Shown here one piece after another: positions 37,508 to 59,189 of a DNA stretch of 64,000 bases (position 1 is the stretch's first letter; every line of letters begins with the position of its first letter). Made by a program: the position numbers and the translations under genes. The notes below the pieces were generated by a model that was given only the letters and a program-made list of their open reading frames with translations, was not told where the DNA came from and made no database searches. Location of the stretch: the NCBI GenBank assembly GCA_016716435.1, contig JADJWI010000004.1, forward strand, positions 37,045 to 101,044. Direction: 5' to 3'. The stretch is from Acidobacteriota bacterium. GTDB taxonomy: Bacteria > Acidobacteriota > Blastocatellia > Pyrinomonadales > Pyrinomonadaceae.

Positions 37508-39022
37508 ATGCAGACACTCGACCTCATCATCATCTTCGGCTATCTGTTCGGCATCACCGCCTTCGGTATCTGGTATGCCGGAAAGCAGGAAACGACCGAG
37601 GACTACTTCGTCGGCGACCGCAACGTGCCGTGGTGGGCCATCTCGATGTCCATCGTCGCGACCGAAACGAGCACGATCACATTCATCTCGGTCCCGGGCA
37701 TCGCCTACGCCCGCGGCGGAAATTTCGAGTTTTTGCAGCTCGTCTTCGGTTATCTGGTTGGCCGCGTGGTCATCTCGCTCGTCTTTATTCCGCTCTATTT
37801 CAAGGGCGAATTGCAGACGGTTTACCAACTGCTCGGCGATCGCTTCGGCGGCAAAGTAAAAATGCTCGCCTCCGGCCTGTTCGTCATAATGCGCAACATC
37901 GCCGACGCCATCCGGCTGCTGCTTACGGCTATCGTTCTCGCCGCGGTCTATACGGCATTTAGCCCGACGACCGATCCGGCCTACGTCATCGTTGGCTCGA
38001 TTCTGATCCTTGGCATCGTGATGATCATTTTCACCTTCTACGGCGGCATCGAGGCGGTAATTTGGATCGAGGTGGTGCAGCTTGTGATTTACGTTGGCGG
38101 TGCGGTCGCCGCGGCCGTCGTTTTGATCAACAGCATCGATGGCGGCATCAGCGGAGCCATCGAGCTCGGGCGGCAATACGACAAATTTGCCCTCTTTGAT
38201 TTCAATCTCGATTTCGCCAAGACCTACACATTCTGGGGCGGCGTTCTCGGCGGCTGTTTCCTTACGATGTCCACCCACGGAACCGACCAGTTTCTCGTCC
38301 AGCGATATCTCTGCACCAACAAACCGAGTGCCGCGATCATGGCCCTGATGACCTCAGGTGCAGTAGTCCTCGGCCAGTTCATCGGCTTCCTTTTCATCGG
38401 CGTTCTGCTCTTCGCGTTCTACGCTCCGTATGGAATGGAAGGCTACGCGACGGCAGCACCGACCTTCCCGTTCACCGGCGGCGACAAGGTCTTTCCGAAC
38501 TTTATCACCCAGCATATGCCGACCGGGCTTTCCGGTTTGGTCGTCGCAGCCATCTTTGCCGCGGCTCTTTCGTCGTCGCTAAATTCGATCGCCTCGACCG
38601 CGGTCAACGACCTCTATAAACCCTTTGCGAAAGATAAATCAGATAAGCAGTTGATGCGGATCGCCGGTATTTTGACGGTCGTGGTCGGCATTATTCAGAT
38701 CGCCATCGCCATCGGGCTCAAGGACGCAAATAGCTCTGCACTCAGCATGGCACTCGCCGTCGCCTCGCTTATCAACGGCCCGATACTCGGCGTGTTTCTT
38801 GTCGGTAGTTTCCTTAAAAAAGCCCGCGAGGTCCACGCATTGACCGGAATGATCGTAAGTATTTTGGTGATGACATACGTCCTGCTTGCATCAAATGGAT
38901 TCGTCCCGGGACCGGTCATCGCGTGGCCGTGGTATGCCCTGATCGGCAGTTCGATCACAGTCGTAGTTGCGTTCATAACAACGCTATTCGTAAATAATGG
39001 TAATGATGAAGTTTCTAATTAG
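37508..39022 (+). CDS. Sodium:solute symporter (SSF) family transporter
   Basis: 504-aa protein with ~13 TM helices and an SSF-like N-terminus (DYFVGDRNVPWWAISMSIVATETSTITFISVPG). Confidence 0.85.
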   Translation: MQTLDLIIIFGYLFGITAFGIWYAGKQETTEDYFVGDRNVPWWAISMSIVATETSTITFISVPGIAYARGGNFEFLQLVFGYLVGRVVISLVFIPLYFKGELQTVYQLLGDRFGGKVKMLASGLFVIMRNIADAIRLLLTAIVLAAVYTAFSPTTDPAYVIVGSILILGIVMIIFTFYGGIEAVIWIEVVQLVIYVGGAVAAAVVLINSIDGGISGAIELGRQYDKFALFDFNLDFAKTYTFWGGVLGGCFLTMSTHGTDQFLVQRYLCTNKPSAAIMALMTSGAVVLGQFIGFLFIGVLLFAFYAPYGMEGYATAAPTFPFTGGDKVFPNFITQHMPTGLSGLVVAAIFAAALSSSLNSIASTAVNDLYKPFAKDKSDKQLMRIAGILTVVVGIIQIAIAIGLKDANSSALSMALAVASLINGPILGVFLVGSFLKKAREVHALTGMIVSILVMTYVLLASNGFVPGPVIAWPWYALIGSSITVVVAFITTLFVNNGNDEVSN

Positions 39023-41168
39023 TTCTTTTCTCGTCCTAAACATTTCGCTGGCCTCCCTCGCTTTTGCCTCGCCGCAGGTAGTGACGGCACAGCCTTCGGC
39101 ACGATTCGAGCCCTCGAAAAAGTCCTGGGATTGGGCCGATAGGACGCTCAAGAAAATGACGACCGATCAGAAGGTCGGGCAGTTGATCCACGTCGGCATC
39201 AATGCCCGGTTTGCCAATCAGGACAGTTGGTTCTTCAAGGACCTGCGGCGGCACGTGACGGAAAACAAGATCGGCGGAATCATCTTTTTCGGGGCTCCGA
39301 TCTATGAAACGACCCACATCGCCAACCGAATGCAGGAGGCGGCCAAGATACCGATGCTGATGTCGCTCGACGCCGAGACCGGCATCGGAATGCGGTTTCA
39401 GGACGCGACCAACTTCCCTTGGGCAATGGCCGTCGCCGCGACCGGCGAGCCCGAGTTTGCCCGTCGAATGGGCGCGATCACCGGCCGCGAGGCACGAGCC
39501 ATCGGCATTCAGCACGTTTATGCACCCGTGCTCGACGTCAACAACAACGCCGATAATCCGGTCATCAACGTCCGCAGCTTTGGCGAGGACCCCGAGGACG
39601 TTGCACGCTTCGGCGTCGCCTTTGCCCAAGGGCTTCAGAGCGAGCGGGTCATCGCGACCGCCAAGCATTTTCCCGGCCATGGCGATACGAATGTCGATTC
39701 GCACCGCGGGCTTCCGATCATCGATCTCCCCAAGTCGCGGCTCGATTCCGTCGAGCTTGTTCCCTTCCGCCGAGCGGTCGAGGGCGGCATCGGCTCGGTG
39801 ATGATCGCCCATATCGCGCTTCCGCAGATCGATGGCGAAGAGATCCGCCCGCTAAAGGAATACCAGGGCGGCGACGCCGAACCCGGCACCGAGATCGTCA
39901 CCGAAAAGGCGACCATCCCCGCTACGCTTTCGCACAAAGTGCAGACCGAGATGCTGCGAAACGAGATGGGCTTCAAGGGCCTTATCGTCTCCGACGCGAT
40001 GTCGATGAGCGGCCTGACGCTTTATTTCACACAGGAGGAAGCTGGCGTCCGCGCGTTCCTCGCCGGTACCGACATCCTCGAAAAACCAGAGAATGTTGAC
40101 GCGATGATCCGCGGCCTGAAAGCCGCCGTCGCAAGCGGACGAATACCGATGGCACGGCTTGATGACTCGGTCCGCCGCCAGCTTGCCTGGAAGCACGCCG
40201 TCGGCCTGACCGAGCAAAAGATAACCCCGCTTGACCAGATCGACCGCATCGTCAGCGGTCCCGAAACGAACCGGCTGACCGATGAGATAGCACAACGTGC
40301 TATCACATTGGTGCGGCAGGAGGCGGGTGCAATGCCGGTCAATCGGGAAAAGAAGATCGCGGTCTTTGGCATCTCGAATGGTTTTGATGGCCCCGCGACC
40401 ATGGGCCCGTTTGCCGGCACGCTCCGCTCGGCGGGCCTCCGGTTCGGACAGGCATATTTGCAGGAGAACTCGCTCGCCGAGCAGGCCGCCGCGGCCCGAA
40501 AGACCGTCATGGAAGCGGACACCGTGATCGTCGGGCTCTACGGCCGCGTTCGCTCGGGTGCGAGGAACAGCGTCGGCATTCCCGAGAACGGAGCCGCAAT
40601 TCTCCGCGAGGCACTCGCGGCCGGAAAGCAGGTGATCGGGATCAGCTTCGGCAATCCGTACATTCTGTCGTCGTTCCCCGAGATGAAGACCTACGTCGTC
40701 GCGTACGGCGACATGGCAAGCCTCCAGCGTGCCGCCGCAAGAGGACTTCTCGGCCAGCAGCAGTTCACCGGAAAGCTGCCGATCAGCCTTCCGGGCTTAC
40801 ACCCACGCGGCTTTAATGCATCGCTCAACTTACCTAAACCGATTGCCCTTCCAAAACCCAATTTTCCGCCTGCGGCCTTAGCTGTTCGGGCGAGGAGTGA
40901 CGTTTTGGTAAACGTTTTGATTGATGAAAGCGGCATGGTCAGCGAAGCTACCGCGATTTCAGGTCACCCGCTGTTGCGACAGGCAGCAGTGAATGCCGCT
41001 AAGGGTTCCAAGTTTCAAATCGATGATGAAACGAAAACGAAACAAATAACGATCATATATCGCTTTGCCGAAGAAGGTACGACTGACTCACCGTGCTGTG
41101 AAGGGTTTCCGTACTTGGTTACGATAGCTGCCCCGGACATCAGAATAGCTCCGGGAGGTGTCCATTAA
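38997..41168 (+). CDS. Glycoside hydrolase family 3 (NagZ-like beta-N-acetylhexosaminidase) with C-terminal TonB_C-like domain
   Basis: Signal peptide; KHFPGHGDT; GLIVSDAMSM (nucleophile Asp). C-terminal PNFPPAALAVRARSDVLVNVLIDESGMVSEATAISGHPLLRQAAVNAAKGSKF. Confidence 0.85.
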   Translation: MVMMKFLISSFLVLNISLASLAFASPQVVTAQPSARFEPSKKSWDWADRTLKKMTTDQKVGQLIHVGINARFANQDSWFFKDLRRHVTENKIGGIIFFGAPIYETTHIANRMQEAAKIPMLMSLDAETGIGMRFQDATNFPWAMAVAATGEPEFARRMGAITGREARAIGIQHVYAPVLDVNNNADNPVINVRSFGEDPEDVARFGVAFAQGLQSERVIATAKHFPGHGDTNVDSHRGLPIIDLPKSRLDSVELVPFRRAVEGGIGSVMIAHIALPQIDGEEIRPLKEYQGGDAEPGTEIVTEKATIPATLSHKVQTEMLRNEMGFKGLIVSDAMSMSGLTLYFTQEEAGVRAFLAGTDILEKPENVDAMIRGLKAAVASGRIPMARLDDSVRRQLAWKHAVGLTEQKITPLDQIDRIVSGPETNRLTDEIAQRAITLVRQEAGAMPVNREKKIAVFGISNGFDGPATMGPFAGTLRSAGLRFGQAYLQENSLAEQAAAARKTVMEADTVIVGLYGRVRSGARNSVGIPENGAAILREALAAGKQVIGISFGNPYILSSFPEMKTYVVAYGDMASLQRAAARGLLGQQQFTGKLPISLPGLHPRGFNASLNLPKPIALPKPNFPPAALAVRARSDVLVNVLIDESGMVSEATAISGHPLLRQAAVNAAKGSKFQIDDETKTKQITIIYRFAEEGTTDSPCCEGFPYLVTIAAPDIRIAPGGVH

Positions 41169-42640
41169 TGGCGTCGTGGCGAATTGACGATTTTCTTACC
41201 GTCCGCGATGGGCGGCTGCACATTGACGGCCACGACGCCGTCGCGCTTGCCCGCGAATACGGCACGCCGCTTTTCCTCTATAGCGAGCCGCGGATCCGCC
41301 ACAACATCGACCGGCTCAAGCGGGTCGGCGAGGCTGTCGGCTGCGGATTCAAGCTTTGTTATGCAGCGAAGGCGATGTCCACGCTCGGCGTCCTTCGTTC
41401 GGTGCGCGATGCGGGTTGCGACCTTGAGGTCAATTCGGGCGGCGAGCTTTGGAAAGCTTTGAAAGCCGGTTTCCGCGGCGACCAGCTAAATTTCAACGGC
41501 CTGAGCAAAGAGGCATGGGAGATCGAACTCGCGATCGAGAACGGCGTTTATGCGATCCAGGTCGATTCGCTCTACGAGCTTTCGCTGATCGAAGAAACGG
41601 CCACGCGGCTCGGCAAAAAGGCGAACGTCAGCCTCCGGCTCGTCCCGGGCATCGAATCGGCGACCCACTCCGGCCTGCAGACCGCAATGCTCACCTCGAA
41701 ATTCGGAATGATGCCGGACGAGGCTTTCGGGGCTTTCGCACGATATAAAGACTCGGAACACCTGAACCTAAGCGGCATTCACCTGCACGTCGGCTCGCAA
41801 AACCCTTCGCCCGAGGTTTACACACAGGCGTTTGACGAGATGTTTGGTGCCTTGCTCCGCATCTATCGCGAGACCGGGATCCGGTTGCAGCACATCAATC
41901 TCGGCGGCGGCTTCCCGGTAAATTATCTCCGCGACGGTGCGCAGGCCGGCGACTTCCCCGCCGAACAACGCGAGATGTTTGCCGCCGACTTTGAGCCCGC
42001 CGAGGCGATGCGAGCCGCCTGGGCCGCGGTCCTCAAGAAAGCCGAAGCCGAAAACGTCGTCGATCTGCTCGAAGGCATTACGCTTCTCCTCGAACCCGGC
42101 CGCTCCATCATCGCCGACGCCGCCATCTGCCTGACCACGGTCCGCAATCACAAGGAACGTCCCGTTCATCAAAGCTCCCCTCCTTACGAAGGAGGGGTGG
42201 CCGCCGCTTCGGCTGACGGGGTGGTTCTCGCATCTGACCACCGACCACTGACCACTGACCACTGGCTCCTAACCGACGCCGGCTTCAACATCCTGCTTTC
42301 GATGGAGACCTACAAATGGTACTACCATCTGGTCTCAGCCGAGCGTGCCGGCGAGCCGCACGAAACGCCCTACAAACTTGCCGGCCCGCTATGCGACGGC
42401 GGCGATGTCTATTTTGATATCGAGGGAGAAGGAAGGCTGCCTGACCACCGGCTCTTGCCCGAAAACGTCGAACCCGGCGAGGTGCTCGCCCTGCTCAATT
42501 GCGGTGCCTATTCGCTCGCCCAGGCCTCGCAATACAACGGCCGCTTCCTTCCGCCCGTCGTCATGACAAAGGCCGACCGCACCGCCGAACTCATCCGCCG
42601 CCGCGACACCTTCGAAGACCTCATCGCCAACGACCTTTGA
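41168..42640 (+). CDS. PLP-dependent Orn/DAP/Arg decarboxylase family 2 enzyme (diaminopimelate decarboxylase-like) carrying a ~30-aa insertion
   Basis: CYAAKAMS (PLP Lys), HLHVGSQ, NLGGGFPV, EPGRSI and GPLCDGGD motifs. The ATG overlaps the GH3 stop (TAATG). Confidence 0.8.
   Translation: MASWRIDDFLTVRDGRLHIDGHDAVALAREYGTPLFLYSEPRIRHNIDRLKRVGEAVGCGFKLCYAAKAMSTLGVLRSVRDAGCDLEVNSGGELWKALKAGFRGDQLNFNGLSKEAWEIELAIENGVYAIQVDSLYELSLIEETATRLGKKANVSLRLVPGIESATHSGLQTAMLTSKFGMMPDEAFGAFARYKDSEHLNLSGIHLHVGSQNPSPEVYTQAFDEMFGALLRIYRETGIRLQHINLGGGFPVNYLRDGAQAGDFPAEQREMFAADFEPAEAMRAAWAAVLKKAEAENVVDLLEGITLLLEPGRSIIADAAICLTTVRNHKERPVHQSSPPYEGGVAAASADGVVLASDHRPLTTDHWLLTDAGFNILLSMETYKWYYHLVSAERAGEPHETPYKLAGPLCDGGDVYFDIEGEGRLPDHRLLPENVEPGEVLALLNCGAYSLAQASQYNGRFLPPVVMTKADRTAELIRRRDTFEDLIANDL
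42177..42229. repeat. REP-like double-hairpin element, copy A (inside the decarboxylase CDS)
   Basis: cccctccttacgaaggagggg forms a 9-bp stem. A second hairpin lies around ccgcttcgg, followed by ggggtggttctc. It is near-identical to 59030-59080. Confidence 0.85.
42235..42262. repeat. Four tandem heptamers (T/C)GACCAC
   Basis: tgaccac cgaccac tgaccac tgaccac, directly 3' of REP copy A and inside the CDS. Confidence 0.85.
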
Positions 42641-43312
42641 TCAGGCGATCGCGAGTTCGACGCCATCGAAAAGTTCAAGAGCGGGAGCGTATTCAATATG
42701 CAGAACGCGACGTGGCCGGTCGCTTATACATTTTGACGAAGCGTGGACGATCAACGGGCTCATCGCGATGACCCCACCTTTCGCGACCGTGCACGTAACC
42801 TGCGGTCCATCGGTTACGACCCTATCGATCTCCGTGTCTGATAATCGTTCTTTGTGCGAGCCGGCGATGAGACGTAGCGGACCGTTGTCCGGTCCCGAAT
42901 CATCGATGTGAATACGAAGGGCAACTATCTCGCGAAGCACTCGTGCCGGAGCCTGGCAAAATGTAATTCCGTCTTTTATCGTCGCAATTCCCCAGTCATT
43001 GGAACTCGGCGGCCGGACCACGGGAAGTGTAGTGTCCTGGTGCCATGCGACAAGCCAATTTGCCTTGCCCGCTTTGTTAAAGAGCGTCGCCTTGAAGGGT
43101 ATCAAGCGCTTGCCAGAAATACTATCGACAAGCTCGGTCAACCGTGGGTCACTAGCCAAACTGCGAACTGCAGGGTCAGCCATAAGGTGGCGATAGCCCG
43201 GCCGCTCCGGCTCGGCATTCAGCACCCCAAGCCGATCAATAAACGAATCCATTTCCGAGTGCTCAAACACCTTCTCCGTAATGAGATAGCCATTTTCTGA
43301 GAAGTTAGTCAC
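42641..43312 (-). CDS. Phytanoyl-CoA dioxygenase (PhyH) family Fe(II)/2OG oxygenase
   Basis: 223 aa; WHQD (HxD) and a C-terminal VHASS His context. Confidence 0.7.
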   Translation of the reverse strand: MTNFSENGYLITEKVFEHSEMDSFIDRLGVLNAEPERPGYRHLMADPAVRSLASDPRLTELVDSISGKRLIPFKATLFNKAGKANWLVAWHQDTTLPVVRPPSSNDWGIATIKDGITFCQAPARVLREIVALRIHIDDSGPDNGPLRLIAGSHKERLSDTEIDRVVTDGPQVTCTVAKGGVIAMSPLIVHASSKCISDRPRRVLHIEYAPALELFDGVELAIA

Positions 43313-50450: not shown

Positions 50451-51975
50451 GGGGGTTTCTTCCGGGCGGTTTTTTTCTCCGGGGGGGGGAAGGATTCAAA
50501 AAGGGGGGGGGGTCTCCGCTTTTTCCTTTGCGGCTTTTTTTTTTAACTGTCGCGGCGGGCGGAAAGCGTTGACCGGGCCTGTCGCGGTCTTCGCTTTTCG
50601 TTTCCCCGGCGGGAACGGCGGGGGGGGCGGGGGGGGGACGCGGGCGGGGGTCAACAGGGCAAGAGGTTGCCGGGGCAAAGAAGGGTGCCTCGTTTGCTCT
50701 CGGGCCCGGGGCCTGGGCACACCTCGACGGGAATACGGCGCTCGCGGCGCCGGGGCGCGCCCCGCGACGGAAACGGCGCCGCCGCCCTTTTTAAAAGTTT
50801 GTCGTTGCTCGTTTTGATAGAGCAGGCCGCGATGCACCTACCTATTCTTGGCTCTCCGTTCAAGTCTTTTGCATATCCGCCTGGCGGGGGGGTAATAGGG
50901 GGGGGGGGGGTTGGGGGCGGGGGGCCCGGGGGTTTTGGGGGTGGGTGGTTTTTTTTGGGGGGGGGCTTGGGGCCGTGGTTTTTTGGGGGGGGGGGGGTTT
51001 TTTGGGGGGGTGGGCGGGGGGGGGGGGGGGGGGGGGGGCGGGGGGGGGCTCCGGGGGGGGGGGGGGGGGCCTCGGCCCGGGGCCTTCCGGGGGGGGGCCG
51101 GGGCCCTTTTTCCCGGGGCCCCCCGGGCGGGTCGCTTGGCCCCCCCCTTTTTGGCGGCGGGGGGGGCCCGGCGGGCCTTTTGGCCCCCCCGGGGGCGGGG
51201 GCCCCCCCCCGCGGGGGGGTTTTTGGCGGGGGGTTTGGTGGCGGCTTTTTCCCGGGGCGGGGGCCCTTCGGGCGGGGCTTTTGTTTCGGCGGTTGGCCCG
51301 GGCGGGGTTTTTTGGGCGGCGGGGGGCCCCCCGGGCTTGCTTCGGGGGGGGTGTTGTCCTTTCGGGGGGAATTTCGCGGCGGGCTTTTTTTCCGGGGGGG
51401 GCGGGCCGGGTTTTTTTTTTCGGCCCCGGGGGGGGGGGGGCCCCGCCCCCCCTTTTGGCGGGGGGGGCGGCCGCGGGGCGGCCTCCTGGGGGCCCACGGG
51501 GGCCGCTTCGTTCGCGGGTGGCGGGCCGTTCGGCGGGGGGGGCGTTTTTGGGGGTCCCTGGGGGGGGCCGGCCCCGGGTTTTGGGGGGGGCGGCCCCCCG
51601 GGGGGGGCCCCTCCGGGGGGGCCCGCCCCCCCTGGGGGGCGTTTGGGGGGCCCCGGCGGGGGGGGGTTCCCGCCCCGGGGGGGCGGCCCCCCGGGGGGGG
51701 GCCTCCTTGGGGCCGCCCCCTCCGGCCCCCGGGCCCTTTCGGGGTTTTTCCCTTTTTCGTTCTTCCGGCCGGGGGGGCCTTTTTCGTCCCGCCCGGGGGC
51801 GGGGGGGGTTCCGCGGTCCCCCCCCCGCGGCGGGGGGGAACTTTTTCGGGGGGGGTTTTTGGGGGCCCTTTTTTTGGGGGCGGGGGGGGGGGGGCCTATT
51901 TTTTTTGGGGTCCGGGGGGTTTCCGTTTTTTTGTGGCCCCGCCCCCGCGGCGGTCCCGGGGGTCCGGCCTCTTAG
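50451..51975. other. Adenine-depleted tract of G/C/T homopolymer blocks (non-coding; artefact or exotic element)
   Basis: G runs of 23 nt (51016-51038) and 17 nt (51053-51069); T10 at 51411-51420. I count only six A between 50898 and 51970. All six frames are open purely for lack of stop codons. Confidence 0.9.
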
Positions 51976-57367: not shown

Positions 57368-59017
<1,650 letters not shown>

Positions 59018-59029
59018 TCCGCTCCCGCA

Positions 59030-59080
59030 CCCCTCCTTACGAAGGAGGGGTGTCACCGCTTCGGTGACGGGGTGGTTCTC
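59030..59080. repeat. REP-like double-hairpin element, copy B (downstream of groEL)
   Basis: cccctccttacgaaggagggg, then gtcaccgcttcggtgac (7-bp stem), then ggggtggttctc, followed by ttttcc. It may double as the groEL terminator. Confidence 0.85.
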
Positions 59081-59189
59081 TTTTCCGCCAAGAACCGGAA
59101 GCAATAGCGACCGGGTAGTATTACCAAAAGGCCTCGGCATCCGCCGGGGCTTTTTCTTCTACATTTTCGCGCCTCGCAGCGAACATGTT

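Follow-up and report, generated by a model that had tools for sequence, protein, structure and literature searches.

Class II purine-motif triplexes are built from a pyrimidine-rich (Y) arm, a purine-rich (R) arm and a reverse-Hoogsteen arm, in this order 5' to 3', with the Y and R arms Watson-Crick paired over at least 6-8 nt with at most one mismatch (Hoyne 2000; Holder 2015, PMC4666352). The third arm runs antiparallel to the purine arm and forms G·G-C and T(A)·A-T triplets (Holder 2015, PMC4666352). Published searches have limited the loops to 1-6 nt (ITxF) or 0-10 nt (Hoyne et al.). The repeat of E. coli known as BoxC, PIT or TM-ECO (Bachellier 1990s; Hoyne, Maher et al. 2000; Holder 2015, PMC4666352) has a C/T arm of 9 nt, which a loop of 3-6 nt separates from its complementary purine arm; after a further short loop comes a G/T arm that mirrors the purine arm. 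The consensus is CCCTCNCCC N3-6 GGGNGAGGG N3 GGGNGAGGG. The E. coli motif has been published to form a triplex in vitro and has been linked to variable loci, and in-vivo DMS footprinting detected no triplex; purine-motif triplexes have been reported not to form in RNA. So far these intrastrand-triplex repeats have been described as oddities of intergenic DNA that are associated with variable loci and have been given no other function.

Rickettsia palindromic elements (RPE), reportedly described by Ogata and co-workers in 2000, and intragenic REPs are small palindromes that lie in frame in conserved genes, where they encode extra loops 20-30 residues long; some occur as dimers, and related genes may carry them at one and the same position. 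The cyanobacterial SDRs, which Elhai and co-workers are said to have reported in 2008, are repeats of 21-27 nt found within or beside tandem heptamers, with nested insertions and compensatory changes, and are described as limited to one cyanobacterial subgroup. The two REP superfamilies are defined by a GTAG or a CGTC tag; intragenic REPs and RPEs are documented, and repeats of the REP type are found mostly 3' of genes (Di Nocera et al. 2013, PMC3733652). Direct repeats of the heptamer TAACTGA occur in Beggiatoaceae, Cyanobacteria and Bacteroidetes (MacGregor 2015, PMC4679880), in tandem and with a patchy cross-phylum distribution, mainly in intergenic regions just 5' of start codons and occasionally in ORFs.

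The element described here shares the single-strand architecture of BoxC/PIT/TM-ECO. Judging from its sequence, we put at roughly two in three the probability that it is a class II intrastrand triplex motif of this kind, with a nested hairpin in loop 2. The type of repeat is known from E. coli; a translated copy within a gene, at a site where the protein changes fast, appears to be new.

Two copies with three arms

An earlier note on this DNA had pointed to two related copies of a repeat, and both are confirmed in the 64-kb window (the whole stretch of DNA that was analysed) as its only two: copy A at 42177-42229 and copy B at 59030-59080. They share exactly a 21-nt core, CCCCTCCTTACGAAGGAGGGG (42177-42197 and 59030-59050), the TG 3' of it and a 12-nt tail, GGGGTGGTTCTC, at the 3' end, so that the middle hairpin is the sole difference between them. 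The core was expected 0 times by chance (100 dinucleotide shuffles). The 5' flanks read AAAGCT in copy A and CCCGCA in copy B, and the 3' side reads TG / GGGG. The features of both copies and of their host regions are listed in Table 1.

Table 1. Positions of the features in the window
Feature	Position	Strand	Basis or remark
Host gene: fold-type III PLP decarboxylase, intact ORF, 490 aa	41168..42640	+	Pfam, phmmer, structure model
Hypervariable loop cassette, 33 codons	42164..42262	+	Between conserved RP (aa 331-332) and W366; orthologue alignments
Copy A 5' flank AAAGCT, subfamily-conserved	42171..42176	+	In L064, L112, L039, L081, L226, L240, L211, L233; not in copy B
Copy A Y arm CCCCTCCTT	42177..42185	+
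Copy A loop 1, ACG, 3 nt	42186..42188	+
Copy A R arm AAGGAGGGG	42189..42197	+	Watson-Crick to Y arm 9/9
Copy A loop 2, nested hairpin (hp2) TGGCCGCCGCTTCGGCTGAC, 20 nt	42198..42217	+	Family consensus TGGCAGCCGCTTCGGCTGAC
Copy A putative reverse-Hoogsteen (third-strand) arm GGGGTGGTT	42218..42226	+	Mirror of R arm with A to T; 9/9 G·G-C and T·A-T triplets
Copy A 3' flank CTC, subfamily-conserved	42227..42229	+
Tandem heptamer array CTGACCA/GACCACY, 4.4 copies	42234..42264	+	TRF; all three frames read DHRPLTTDH
groEL-like ORF, GGM repeats at end	57374..59017	+	Upstream of copy B
Copy B Y arm CCCCTCCTT	59030..59038	+
Copy B loop 1, ACG, 3 nt	59039..59041	+
Copy B R arm AAGGAGGGG	59042..59050	+	Watson-Crick to Y arm 9/9
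Copy B loop 2, nested hairpin TGTCACCGCTTCGGTGAC, 18 nt	59051..59068	+	Perfect 7-bp stem
Copy B putative reverse-Hoogsteen arm GGGGTGGTT	59069..59077	+	9/9 mirror of R arm
Copy B 3' flank CTC	59078..59080	+
Probable intrinsic terminator of groEL, GCCTCGGC-ATCC-GCCGGGGC then TTTTTCTTC	59131..59159	+	Direct reading; about 50 nt past copy B

The repeat had been described as a double hairpin. The two hairpins are there, but that description overlooked a 3' tail which mirrors the purine arm. Both copies have the arm order of class II, Watson-Crick arms (9/9) and a mirror third arm (9/9). Loop 1 (3 nt) lies within the short-loop limit of the class and loop 2 (18-20 nt) lies over it, although it is a hairpin with adjacent ends; as the length of loop 2 exceeds the limits of both published BoxC/PIT/TM searches, we class the element as a variant and not as a plain member. 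The arms (CCCCTCCTT/AAGGAGGGG/GGGGTGGTT) differ from those of the TM-ECO/BoxC consensus, which copies A and B fail on arm sequence; one of the fetched loci, L020, fits the E. coli consensus itself. In-frame copies inside coding sequences are a further difference, with no mention in Holder 2015 (PMC4666352). The likeness extends to behaviour, as BoxC/PIT/TM-ECO repeats are also dispersed, frequently in inverted pairs, at loci that vary between close relatives.

In single-stranded DNA the Y and R arms would form a 9-bp hairpin, and the G/T arm would then return along the major groove, antiparallel to the purine arm, to give G·G-C and T·A-T triplets, with loop 2 forming a small G+C-rich hairpin in the subfamily of copies A and B. 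Both copies may be able to form an actual triplex, and a secondary-structure prediction leaves the GGGGTGGTT tail of copy B unpaired. Compared with the family consensus of hp2 (CAGCCG/CGGCTG), copy A has a synonymous A-to-C change that costs one pair, and copy B has one base pair fewer and one further change. The differences between the two hairpins had been read as compensatory. This is borne out across the family, where hp2 folds with many different stem sequences and structure is kept as sequence varies, but not by the change in copy A, which breaks a pair. The three arms contain 0 stop codons in all six frames, which means that insertions with a length that is a multiple of three can be read through.

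The mirror tail in the wider family

The suggestion of a dispersed repeat, as opposed to a chance match, was sound. The CCCCTCCTTACGAAGGAGGGG core matches at least 120 loci in many phyla, and the hosts of the element include Acidobacteriota, Patescibacteria, Bacteroidota, Nitrospirota and others, whereas BoxC/TM-ECO is enterobacterial. Copies are both genic and intergenic and often form inverted pairs. In most members of the family loop 2 is only 2-5 nt long. The tail accompanies 118 of 145 hairpins, compared to 1.3% of random windows. Among 618 unique asymmetric Y/R hairpins from the fetched loci, a mirror tail is present at 8/9 or better in 252, where the ceiling for the mirror rule is about 50% because every palindrome is counted on both strands; the controls on the same 618 gave 36 for a direct-repeat rule and 37 for shuffled arms. 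When the arm lacks GGAGGGG, its own mirror follows in 45/111 cases versus the canonical tail in 13/111. The tail covaries with the stem over at least 20 arm sequences, as in the pairs AAGGGGAGG/GGTGGGGTA, AAAGGGGGA/AGGGGGATT and GGGAGAGGG/GGGTGAGGG.

Other proteins carry the element as well. Peptides of the SSPPYEGGVAAASADGVVL type, the translation of copy A, occur in AMP-binding_C, class I tRNA synthetase, DNA methylase, MoCoBD_2 and carboxyltransferase proteins; the search used an 80-aa concatenated query, which matched short proteins only and missed the decarboxylases, so these matches carry no frequencies. Related in-frame copies were seen in RarA, Lgt, a beta-CASP nuclease, UDP-glucose dehydrogenase, GT2, FemAB and TsaE. 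Heptamers adjoin 7 of 195 copies, about 3 times a rough chance estimate from array density; we regard the link between heptamers and the element as weak across the family and claim it for the decarboxylase locus only. A search of the whole window against Rfam at the gathering threshold gave no match, and a literature search with the literal element sequence returned no relevant paper.

The host decarboxylase and its loop

By sequence comparison the host of copy A is a D-ornithine/D-lysine or diaminopimelate decarboxylase-like enzyme. Its ORF matches Orn_Arg_deC_N (2.6e-42) and Orn_DAP_Arg_deC in Pfam, and in phmmer the protein matches DOKDC 6n2h at 7.6e-76. The predicted model superimposes on 9nq5/6n2h with a TM score of 0.8-0.85, with the fold intact. 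In the decarboxylase alignment K68, H205/H207, G246-248, E309-R312 and C409-D413 are invariant, and the protein has an N-terminal barrel and a C-terminal sheet domain along with AAK, HxHxGSQ, GGGF, EPGR and CDGGD, which we take to be the catalytic motifs of the Orn/DAP/Arg decarboxylase family. As had been proposed, the loop that holds copy A is longer than that of the family: 36 residues separate RNHK from WLLTDAGFN, versus about 10 in the shortest orthologues (RNAKSRPVDGGTDEW). The proposal that the repeat supplied an insert of about 30 residues needs to be divided, since the element accounts for about 19-23 of the extra residues and the heptamer array for the other 10 or so (SDHRPLTTDH), about a third. 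The surface position that had been suggested for the insert agrees with the structure model, in which residues 335-359 have pLDDT below 50 and no secondary structure and are bracketed by strands at 319-332 and 363-369. The insertion site is therefore predicted to be a disordered surface beta-hairpin loop.

Much of this is what RPEs do, with an insertion in a conserved coding sequence, the frame kept, element-free orthologues and a surface loop (predicted) with intact fold. The element differs from RPEs and REPs by its extra third mirror arm, by the missing GTAG/CGTC tag and by the lack of any sequence relation, and its host range is far wider than Rickettsia. Compared by description, it resembles the SDRs and the STRR heptamer arrays in that copy A adjoins a heptamer array and hp2, flanked by GGGG, has the look of a nested unit. 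The unit of the empty site in an element-free orthologue, (C/T)AACTGA or ACTGACN, comes very close to the heptamer TAACTGA; here arrays of several different heptamers are found at one codon-defined site of the decarboxylase.

Presence, absence and turnover among orthologues

The element is present in 39 of 121 decarboxylase orthologues, always in the same frame and orientation and at approximately the same position. It is absent from an 89%-identical orthologue; in L121, which lacks it, the gene is 95-100% nucleotide-identical over most of its length. This bears out the earlier placement of copy A as an in-frame insert within the decarboxylase ORF. The empty site of L121 is built of a tandem heptamer array like that of copy A, and most orthologues have the heptamer array and no element. 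Parts of the element are deleted in L127, L125 and L130. Depending on lineage, the loop holds the triplex element or a heptamer array, which is inverted in some, and 7 is the sole periodicity detected in the orthologue loops. Genes that are 95-100% identical elsewhere can differ in cassette or miss the element, giving a mosaic identity profile; turnover was counted across orthologues on an NJ tree with no support values. The decarboxylase loop is a hotspot for heptamer arrays, deletions and, probably, mosaic cassette exchange. None of the public sequencing runs searched for the strain contained more than 18% of its words.

The reading frame is intact in 86/86 orthologous loci, and among these 86 no frameshifted allele was found at the heptamer array that would indicate phase variation. 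In some variants the frame shifts inside the element (GVAEGRGGSL) and is restored downstream. Between orthologues the element is 91-98% identical (79-84% for L153, in which hp2 is divergent), with 16-19/19 third positions identical, whereas in distant orthologue pairs third-position identity in the coding sequence outside the element is 40-52%. Since third positions are kept inside the element and are near saturation outside it, conservation of the element, as read from codon positions, acts on the DNA and not on the protein. A single old insertion under some constraint and site-specific reinsertion would fit equally well, because all the decarboxylase copies have one frame and one orientation.

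The setting of copy B

Copy B is intergenic, as the earlier note had it, and starts 12 nt past the groEL stop codon; TCTCTTTTCC follows on its 3' side. The hairpin at 59131-59159 is probably the true groEL terminator, judged by direct reading, and copy B would then lie in the groEL 3' untranslated region, upstream of it. A consensus terminator scan did not include this candidate among its listed sites.

Discussion

The repeat had originally been taken for a REP, an identity that we do not uphold. A classical REP or MITE would be a miniature palindromic transposon that a RAYT or other transposase moves in trans and that entered the gene by transposition, and the dispersal of the element over genic and intergenic sites, often as inverted pairs, would suit this, as would the documented intragenic REPs and RPEs. 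One genome even has a RAYT-like gene beside an orthologous decarboxylase (L247). However, that RAYT is bordered by its own unrelated repeats (GACTGGAGGGCAAGCA), L247 has no copy of the element, and with this RAYT as single query tblastn gave no match in 160 element-bearing loci, where neither a mechanism of copying nor a gene associated with the element came to light. With neither a GTAG nor a CGTC tag on the element, no RAYT found near it, no visible target-site duplication and a mirror-tail covariation that the REP model does not account for, we consider this origin unlikely. The Y1_Tnp domain that P0020 carries, fused upstream of the decarboxylase, represents a distinct RAYT-like insertion: it has repeats of its own, the locus has no element copy, and tblastn with it gave no match in the element-bearing loci.

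A role in RNA, in stabilising mRNA, terminating transcription or sequestering a Shine-Dalgarno-like sequence, could also have led to conservation. Both hairpins fold strongly as RNA (z = -3.9 for copy B), copy B with the TCTCTTTTCC that follows it sits on the 3' side of groEL as REP-like repeats mostly do downstream of genes, and the arm AAGGAGG pairs with CCUCCUU, which has the bases of the 16S rRNA 3' end. This would leave the conserved and covarying third arm unexplained, and purine-motif triplexes are reported not to occur in RNA. Genic copies are in mixed orientation relative to the host gene, PIT/BoxC elements have been published to have no promoter or terminator activity, a canonical terminator lies about 50 nt past copy B and no Rfam family matches, all of which makes an RNA function quite improbable. 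A mimic of the 16S rRNA 3' end, seen in the reverse orientation as a hairpin followed by CACCUCCUU, was rejected as a coincidence of SD/anti-SD composition that leaves the covarying tail unexplained. Readings as a G-quadruplex, an integron attC, a DNA-uptake sequence or a ribozyme were rejected, as the sequence does not show the motifs that define them.

We give hardly any weight to the possibility that SSPPYEGGVAAASADGVVL is an ancestral loop selected for its function in the decarboxylase, to which the similarity downstream of groEL would be secondary. The one frame, orientation and approximate position in all 39 orthologues and the frame kept in all loci could be read this way, but the evidence at hand already contradicts it: third positions are conserved inside the element and saturated outside, the reverse of what protein-level selection gives; the frame shifts within the element and recovers downstream; near-identical genes lack the element or hold another cassette; unrelated enzymes share the peptide, and intergenic sites share the DNA; and the model predicts disorder. 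No orthologue was found with an insert of the same length and no similarity to the repeat, and the motif occurs far beyond the two sites, the two observations on which the earlier note would have given up its view. Its further idea that the enzyme exploits the insert finds no sign, as very close relatives have no element or quite different cassettes.

The element is most likely a structured selfish or neutral DNA repeat that forms a passenger loop in the enzyme. Copy A would contribute about 19 disordered residues to the turn of a surface beta-hairpin, as a passenger and not a functional part, and its peptide is probably neutral. Small deletions at short repeats, together with local recombination between lineages, would account for the turnover of the cassettes. 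As for how the element is copied, we would guess at a step through single-stranded DNA during replication, repair or recombination, or at gene conversion between existing copies.

A third arm that mirrors the stem across unrelated stems and phyla provides comparative evidence for selection on the fold or for a reader of the same symmetry. The 91-98% nucleotide identity of the element amid saturated synonymous sites allows DNA constraint to be separated from protein constraint. Such repeats, which can be read through because their arms are free of stops, occur within real enzymes of several phyla; this matters for annotation, for making sense of unusual low-complexity loops in proteins from MAGs and for the origins of indel hotspots in conserved genes. 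The decarboxylase itself most likely just tolerates the insert as a passenger. We propose only tentatively that triplex-motif repeats, with or without the nested hairpin and sometimes with heptamers, are a cross-phylum class of tiny structured elements with almost no stop codons in any of the six frames, which would recurrently persist as in-frame insertions in loops and owe their constant sequence to their single-stranded-DNA structure and not to the host proteins. If this is true, they would be a general and so far unremarked source of disordered loops and of recombination and indel hotspots in enzymes, in particular in Acidobacteriota and Patescibacteria.

Results

The 21-nt core CCCCTCCTTACGAAGGAGGGG, for which the expectation in shuffled sequence is none, occurs exactly at two places in the window. 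Both copies continue with TG and carry GGGGTGGTTCTC at the 3' end, which leaves the middle segment as the sole difference between the elements themselves. The earlier note had reported these two strings, one within a decarboxylase ORF and the other right after the groEL stop, and the ORF coordinates bear out both placements. Neither relaxed pattern searches nor a generic scan revealed a third copy in the 64-kb window, and Rfam gave no match. The nearest solved relative of the host ORF is the D-ornithine/D-lysine decarboxylase (DOKDC) 6n2h (7.6e-76).

Coordinates of the element copies and of nearby or related features (window positions unless a locus is named)
Feature	Position	Strand	Remarks
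GH3 glycosidase-like ORF	38997-41168		ends at decarboxylase start; 1-nt ATGA overlap, from ORF coordinates only
Fold-type III PLP decarboxylase, host of copy A	41168-42640	+	490 aa; Pfam Orn_Arg_deC_N and Orn_DAP_Arg_deC
Copy A	42177-42229		core 42177-42197
Heptamer array	42234-42264		GACCACY x4
PhyH-family dioxygenase ORF	42641-43312		convergent, directly after decarboxylase stop
Almost A-free stretch	50500-51950		~1.4 kb; long G, C, T homopolymer runs; many overlapping TRF arrays
groEL-like ORF	57374-59017	+	stop codon 12 nt before copy B start
Copy B	59030-59080		core 59030-59050
Canonical intrinsic terminator	59131-59159		~50 nt beyond copy B; 8-bp stem (one G-T pair), then TTTTTCTTC
RAYT-like Y1 transposase, locus L247	4930-5660		GCA_041750855.1, JBGSYT010000050.1; between GH3 gene and orthologous decarboxylase
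Triplex-motif array, locus L069	7048-7330		Thiomargarita sp. MAG, DZAL01000039.1; head-to-tail, 41-nt period, at least 4 full units

A terminator consensus scan did not list the terminator in the table and flagged instead a hairpin made from part of the copy B element. The gene order GH3, decarboxylase, PhyH is conserved in three relatives (L122, L125 and L126), where a PemK/RHH toxin-antitoxin pair comes next. For the almost A-free stretch, to which no ORF or repeat family is assigned, an artefact of sequencing or assembly seems likelier than a biological origin. A search for sequencing runs of this strain found none.

The best 120 homologues of the decarboxylase, all from Acidobacteriota and mostly from Pyrinomonadaceae, are 464 to 534 aa long apart from one of 734 aa, and the length variation is confined to the stretch between the conserved RNxKxRP and WLLTDAGFN blocks. 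The outlier (P0020) is explained as a fusion ORF at L247 with Pfam Y1_Tnp at residues 93-172. The closely related locus L121 shares 95-100% nucleotide identity with the window gene over most of its length and has at the insertion site only a tandem heptamer array (ACTGACG ACCGACA ACTGACA ACTGACC), whereas the window has the element followed by a similar array. The element thus accounts for about 19-23 extra residues and the heptamers for about 10, so the in-frame insertion of about 30 residues proposed earlier stands as an insertion but is not derived from the palindromic repeat throughout. Other close relatives carry decay products of the element, in which the middle hairpin is missing between two GGGG runs (L127, L125, L128), GACGGGGTGGTTCTC is the sole remnant (L130) or the first arm is mutated (L124).

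At the empty site the repeat unit (CAACTGA / ACTGACN; L121 loop ~1530-1560, and the array in the window) is nearly the TAACTGA heptamer reported from Beggiatoaceae, Cyanobacteria and Bacteroidetes (PMC4679880), from which it departs just enough to escape in-frame stop codons. One 84%-identical orthologue (P0010) lies on a 6.99-Mb contig labelled Leptolyngbya sp. 7M, a cyanobacterium, while the other close homologues are all acidobacterial; either this label is in error, or perhaps a co-cultured organism was assembled.

Between element-bearing orthologues, identity within the element is 91-98%, and 16-19 of its 19 third codon positions agree (79-84% identity for L153, whose middle hairpin differs in sequence), and in distant pairs the third-position identity of the remaining CDS is only 40-52%. 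Some orthologues read the second half of the element in another frame (GVAEGRGGSL, not GVAAASADGVVL) and regain the frame downstream. The consensus AAAGCT-CCCCTCCTTACGAAGGAGGGG-TGGCAGCCGCTTCGGCTGAC-GGGGTGGTTCTC is also found at unrelated, largely intergenic sites on other Acidobacteriota contigs and on IMG/VR contigs. Its peptide SSPPYEGGVAAASADGVVLS appears within the AMP-binding_C domain of P0188, between the catalytic and anticodon-binding domains of class I tRNA synthetases (P0202, P0160), and in a DNA methylase (as an inverted pair), a MoCoBD_2 protein and a carboxyltransferase. Conservation of the element is at the level of the DNA and not of the protein. On IMG/VR contigs classed as viral the hairpin core occurs in 40 stretches (L207-L246), with a maximum of six copies on one 23.6-kb contig (IMGVR_UViG_3300044996_000692), and several of these copies match the Pyrinomonadaceae subfamily exactly.

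Scanning one genome per species with the pattern CCCCTCCTTNNNAAGGAGGGG gave at least 120 loci, and the hosts among those listed include Chlamydiota, Bacteroidota (with cultured Hymenobacter and Robertkochia), Nitrospirota, Patescibacteria, Thiomargarita, Planctomycetota, Chloroflexota and Acidobacteriota. GGGG(T/A)GG(T/A) follows the hairpin (or precedes it on the other strand) in 118 of 145 copies, compared to 1.3% of random windows of the same loci. Read backwards, with T or A in place of A, the purine arm gives this mirror-image tail (arm 5'-AAGGAGGGG-3', tail 5'-GGGGTGGTT-3'), whose sequence is exactly that of an antiparallel third strand in a purine-motif triple helix and would form G*G-C and T*A-T triplets. 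In these loci, polypyrimidine/polypurine stems of other sequence covary with mirror tails of their own: AAGGGGAGG with GGTGGGGTA, AAAGGGGGA with AGGGGGATT, GAGGAGGGG with GGGGTGGTG, GGGAGAGGG with GGGTGAGGG and AGGGGGAGA with AGAGGGGGT. Of 618 unique asymmetric hairpins, 252 have a mirror tail with a match of at least 8/9, where the ceiling is about half because each palindrome is counted on both strands; the count falls to 36 under a direct-repeat rule and to 37 with a shuffled arm. Arms without the canonical core have their own mirror in 45/111 cases and the canonical tail in 13/111. Heptamer arrays next to the element show a weak association across the family. Besides the array listed in the table, the same 8 kb of L069 contains triplex motifs as inverted pairs.

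Spacers of 12 nt or more that separate the purine arm from the tail nearly always form a G+C-rich hairpin starting directly after a T, with stems as varied as GCCC/GGGC, GGCAC/GTGCC, GGCGC/GCGCC, CAGCCG/CGGCTG, GGGCG/CGCCT and longer ones. Structure kept while sequence varies supports the earlier impression of compensatory changes at the family level. The window by itself offers less: the 7-bp stem of copy B is perfect, and in copy A a synonymous A-to-C change relative to the subfamily consensus breaks one pair. Folded as DNA, copy B gives two clean hairpins with the tail free (z = -5.4), and copy A folds more poorly (z = -2.7).

Discussion

The view of a REP-like double hairpin holds in part; the most fitting description of the element is a variant, with a nested hairpin, of the known intrastrand-triplex (BoxC/PIT/TM) repeats. 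Holder et al. (NAR 2015, PMC4666352) define the class II purine-motif intrastrand triplex as a 5'-pyrimidine arm, a purine arm and a reverse-Hoogsteen arm-3', and the window element has this structure with 9/9 pairs and 9/9 triplets. The E. coli consensus TM-ECO, earlier named BoxC and then PIT, is CCCTCNCCC N3-6 GGGNGAGGG N3 GGGNGAGGG (PMC4666352). Our element differs from it in arm sequence, in a second loop that is an 18-20-nt hairpin and exceeds the loop limits of both published searches, and in the in-frame position of copy A within a coding sequence, a situation on which that paper is silent. A literature search found no report of in-frame coding copies of triplex motifs; in-frame palindromic repeats are already known as RPEs and intragenic GTAG/CGTC REPs (PMC3733652). 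According to Holder et al., TM-ECO single-stranded DNA forms a stable triplex in vitro, whereas neither duplex DNA nor in-vivo DMS footprinting gave a triplex signal; the motif has neither promoter nor terminator activity, and purine-motif triplexes do not form in RNA (PMC4666352). For the present element, we infer both triplex formation and the way in which the copies spread. A tblastn search of 160 element-bearing loci with the RAYT of L247 as the single query gave no hit, and no other candidate mobilising gene was found; the RAYT at L247 was rejected as its source, having its own inverted repeats (GACTGGAGGGCAAGCA ... TGCTTGCTCTCCAGTC) that are unrelated to the triplex element.

Arms made of C/T, A/G and G/T, and their complements, cannot encode TAA, TAG or TGA, so stops are possible only in the loops or at junctions, which explains how the element can be accommodated within a gene; the full-length consensus is open in 4 of 6 frames. 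Of the 145 copies in the fetched loci, at least nine sit within genuine genes whose Pfam matches flank or span the insertion, namely RarA/MgsA, Lgt, a beta-CASP metallo-beta-lactamase nuclease, UDP-glucose dehydrogenase, a GT2 glycosyltransferase, FemAB, TsaE, a PQQ propeller and a spermidine-synthase-like protein; Patescibacteria are the source of several. The AlphaFold model of the decarboxylase (mean pLDDT 75.7, pTM 0.79) matches DOKDC structures at TM 0.8-0.85. Residues 335-359, with pLDDT below 50 and no secondary structure, lie between strands 319-332 and 363-369, which would place the insert at the turn of a beta hairpin in the sheet domain. The conserved motif residues are intact, and nothing points to a role for the inserted peptide. 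Copy A is best described as an in-frame, predicted disordered passenger loop of a predicted functional decarboxylase, and copy B as its twin in the groEL 3' UTR.

Comparison of the loop over 86 orthologous loci, all of which keep the reading frame, revealed arrays of different heptamers (ACTGACC, AATCCGC, AAAATCC, CGACAAC, ACTCCGC, CAGCACT), inverted heptamer arrays that give long hairpins (GGACAAT/ATTGTCC, GGAGAGT/ACTCTCC, GGATTCA/TGAATCC), the triplex element single, doubled or as an inverted pair, and elsewhere unrelated sequence. Period 7 is present in 29 of 68 loci and periods 5, 6, 8 and 9 in none. An alternative cassette in L122 (538-1995) and many other orthologues (P0001, P0004, P0005, P0008, P0009 and others) consists of four GGACAAT heptamers, a short spacer and inverted ATTGTCC-like heptamers, translated as GQWTMDNGQ...LSTIHYPLS.

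On a neighbor-joining tree of 121 sequences, built from the protein minus the loop and carrying no support values, at least 27 changes are required to explain where the element is present and where it is absent, a number close to that obtained when labels are shuffled (mean 33, minimum 24). Outside the region around residues 320-365, the window, L121 and L122 are almost the same; within it they have three different cassettes. Sliding identity between the window and the distant L081 gives 85-95% at third positions over residues 331-380 and about 50% elsewhere. We read this mosaic pattern as the product of small deletions combined with cassette exchange or local recombination. TM-ECO loci are unusually rearranged between strains (PMC4666352), and exchange and deletion at the loop would agree with the instability reported for triplex motifs. 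The decarboxylase site is best described as a repeat-driven hotspot.
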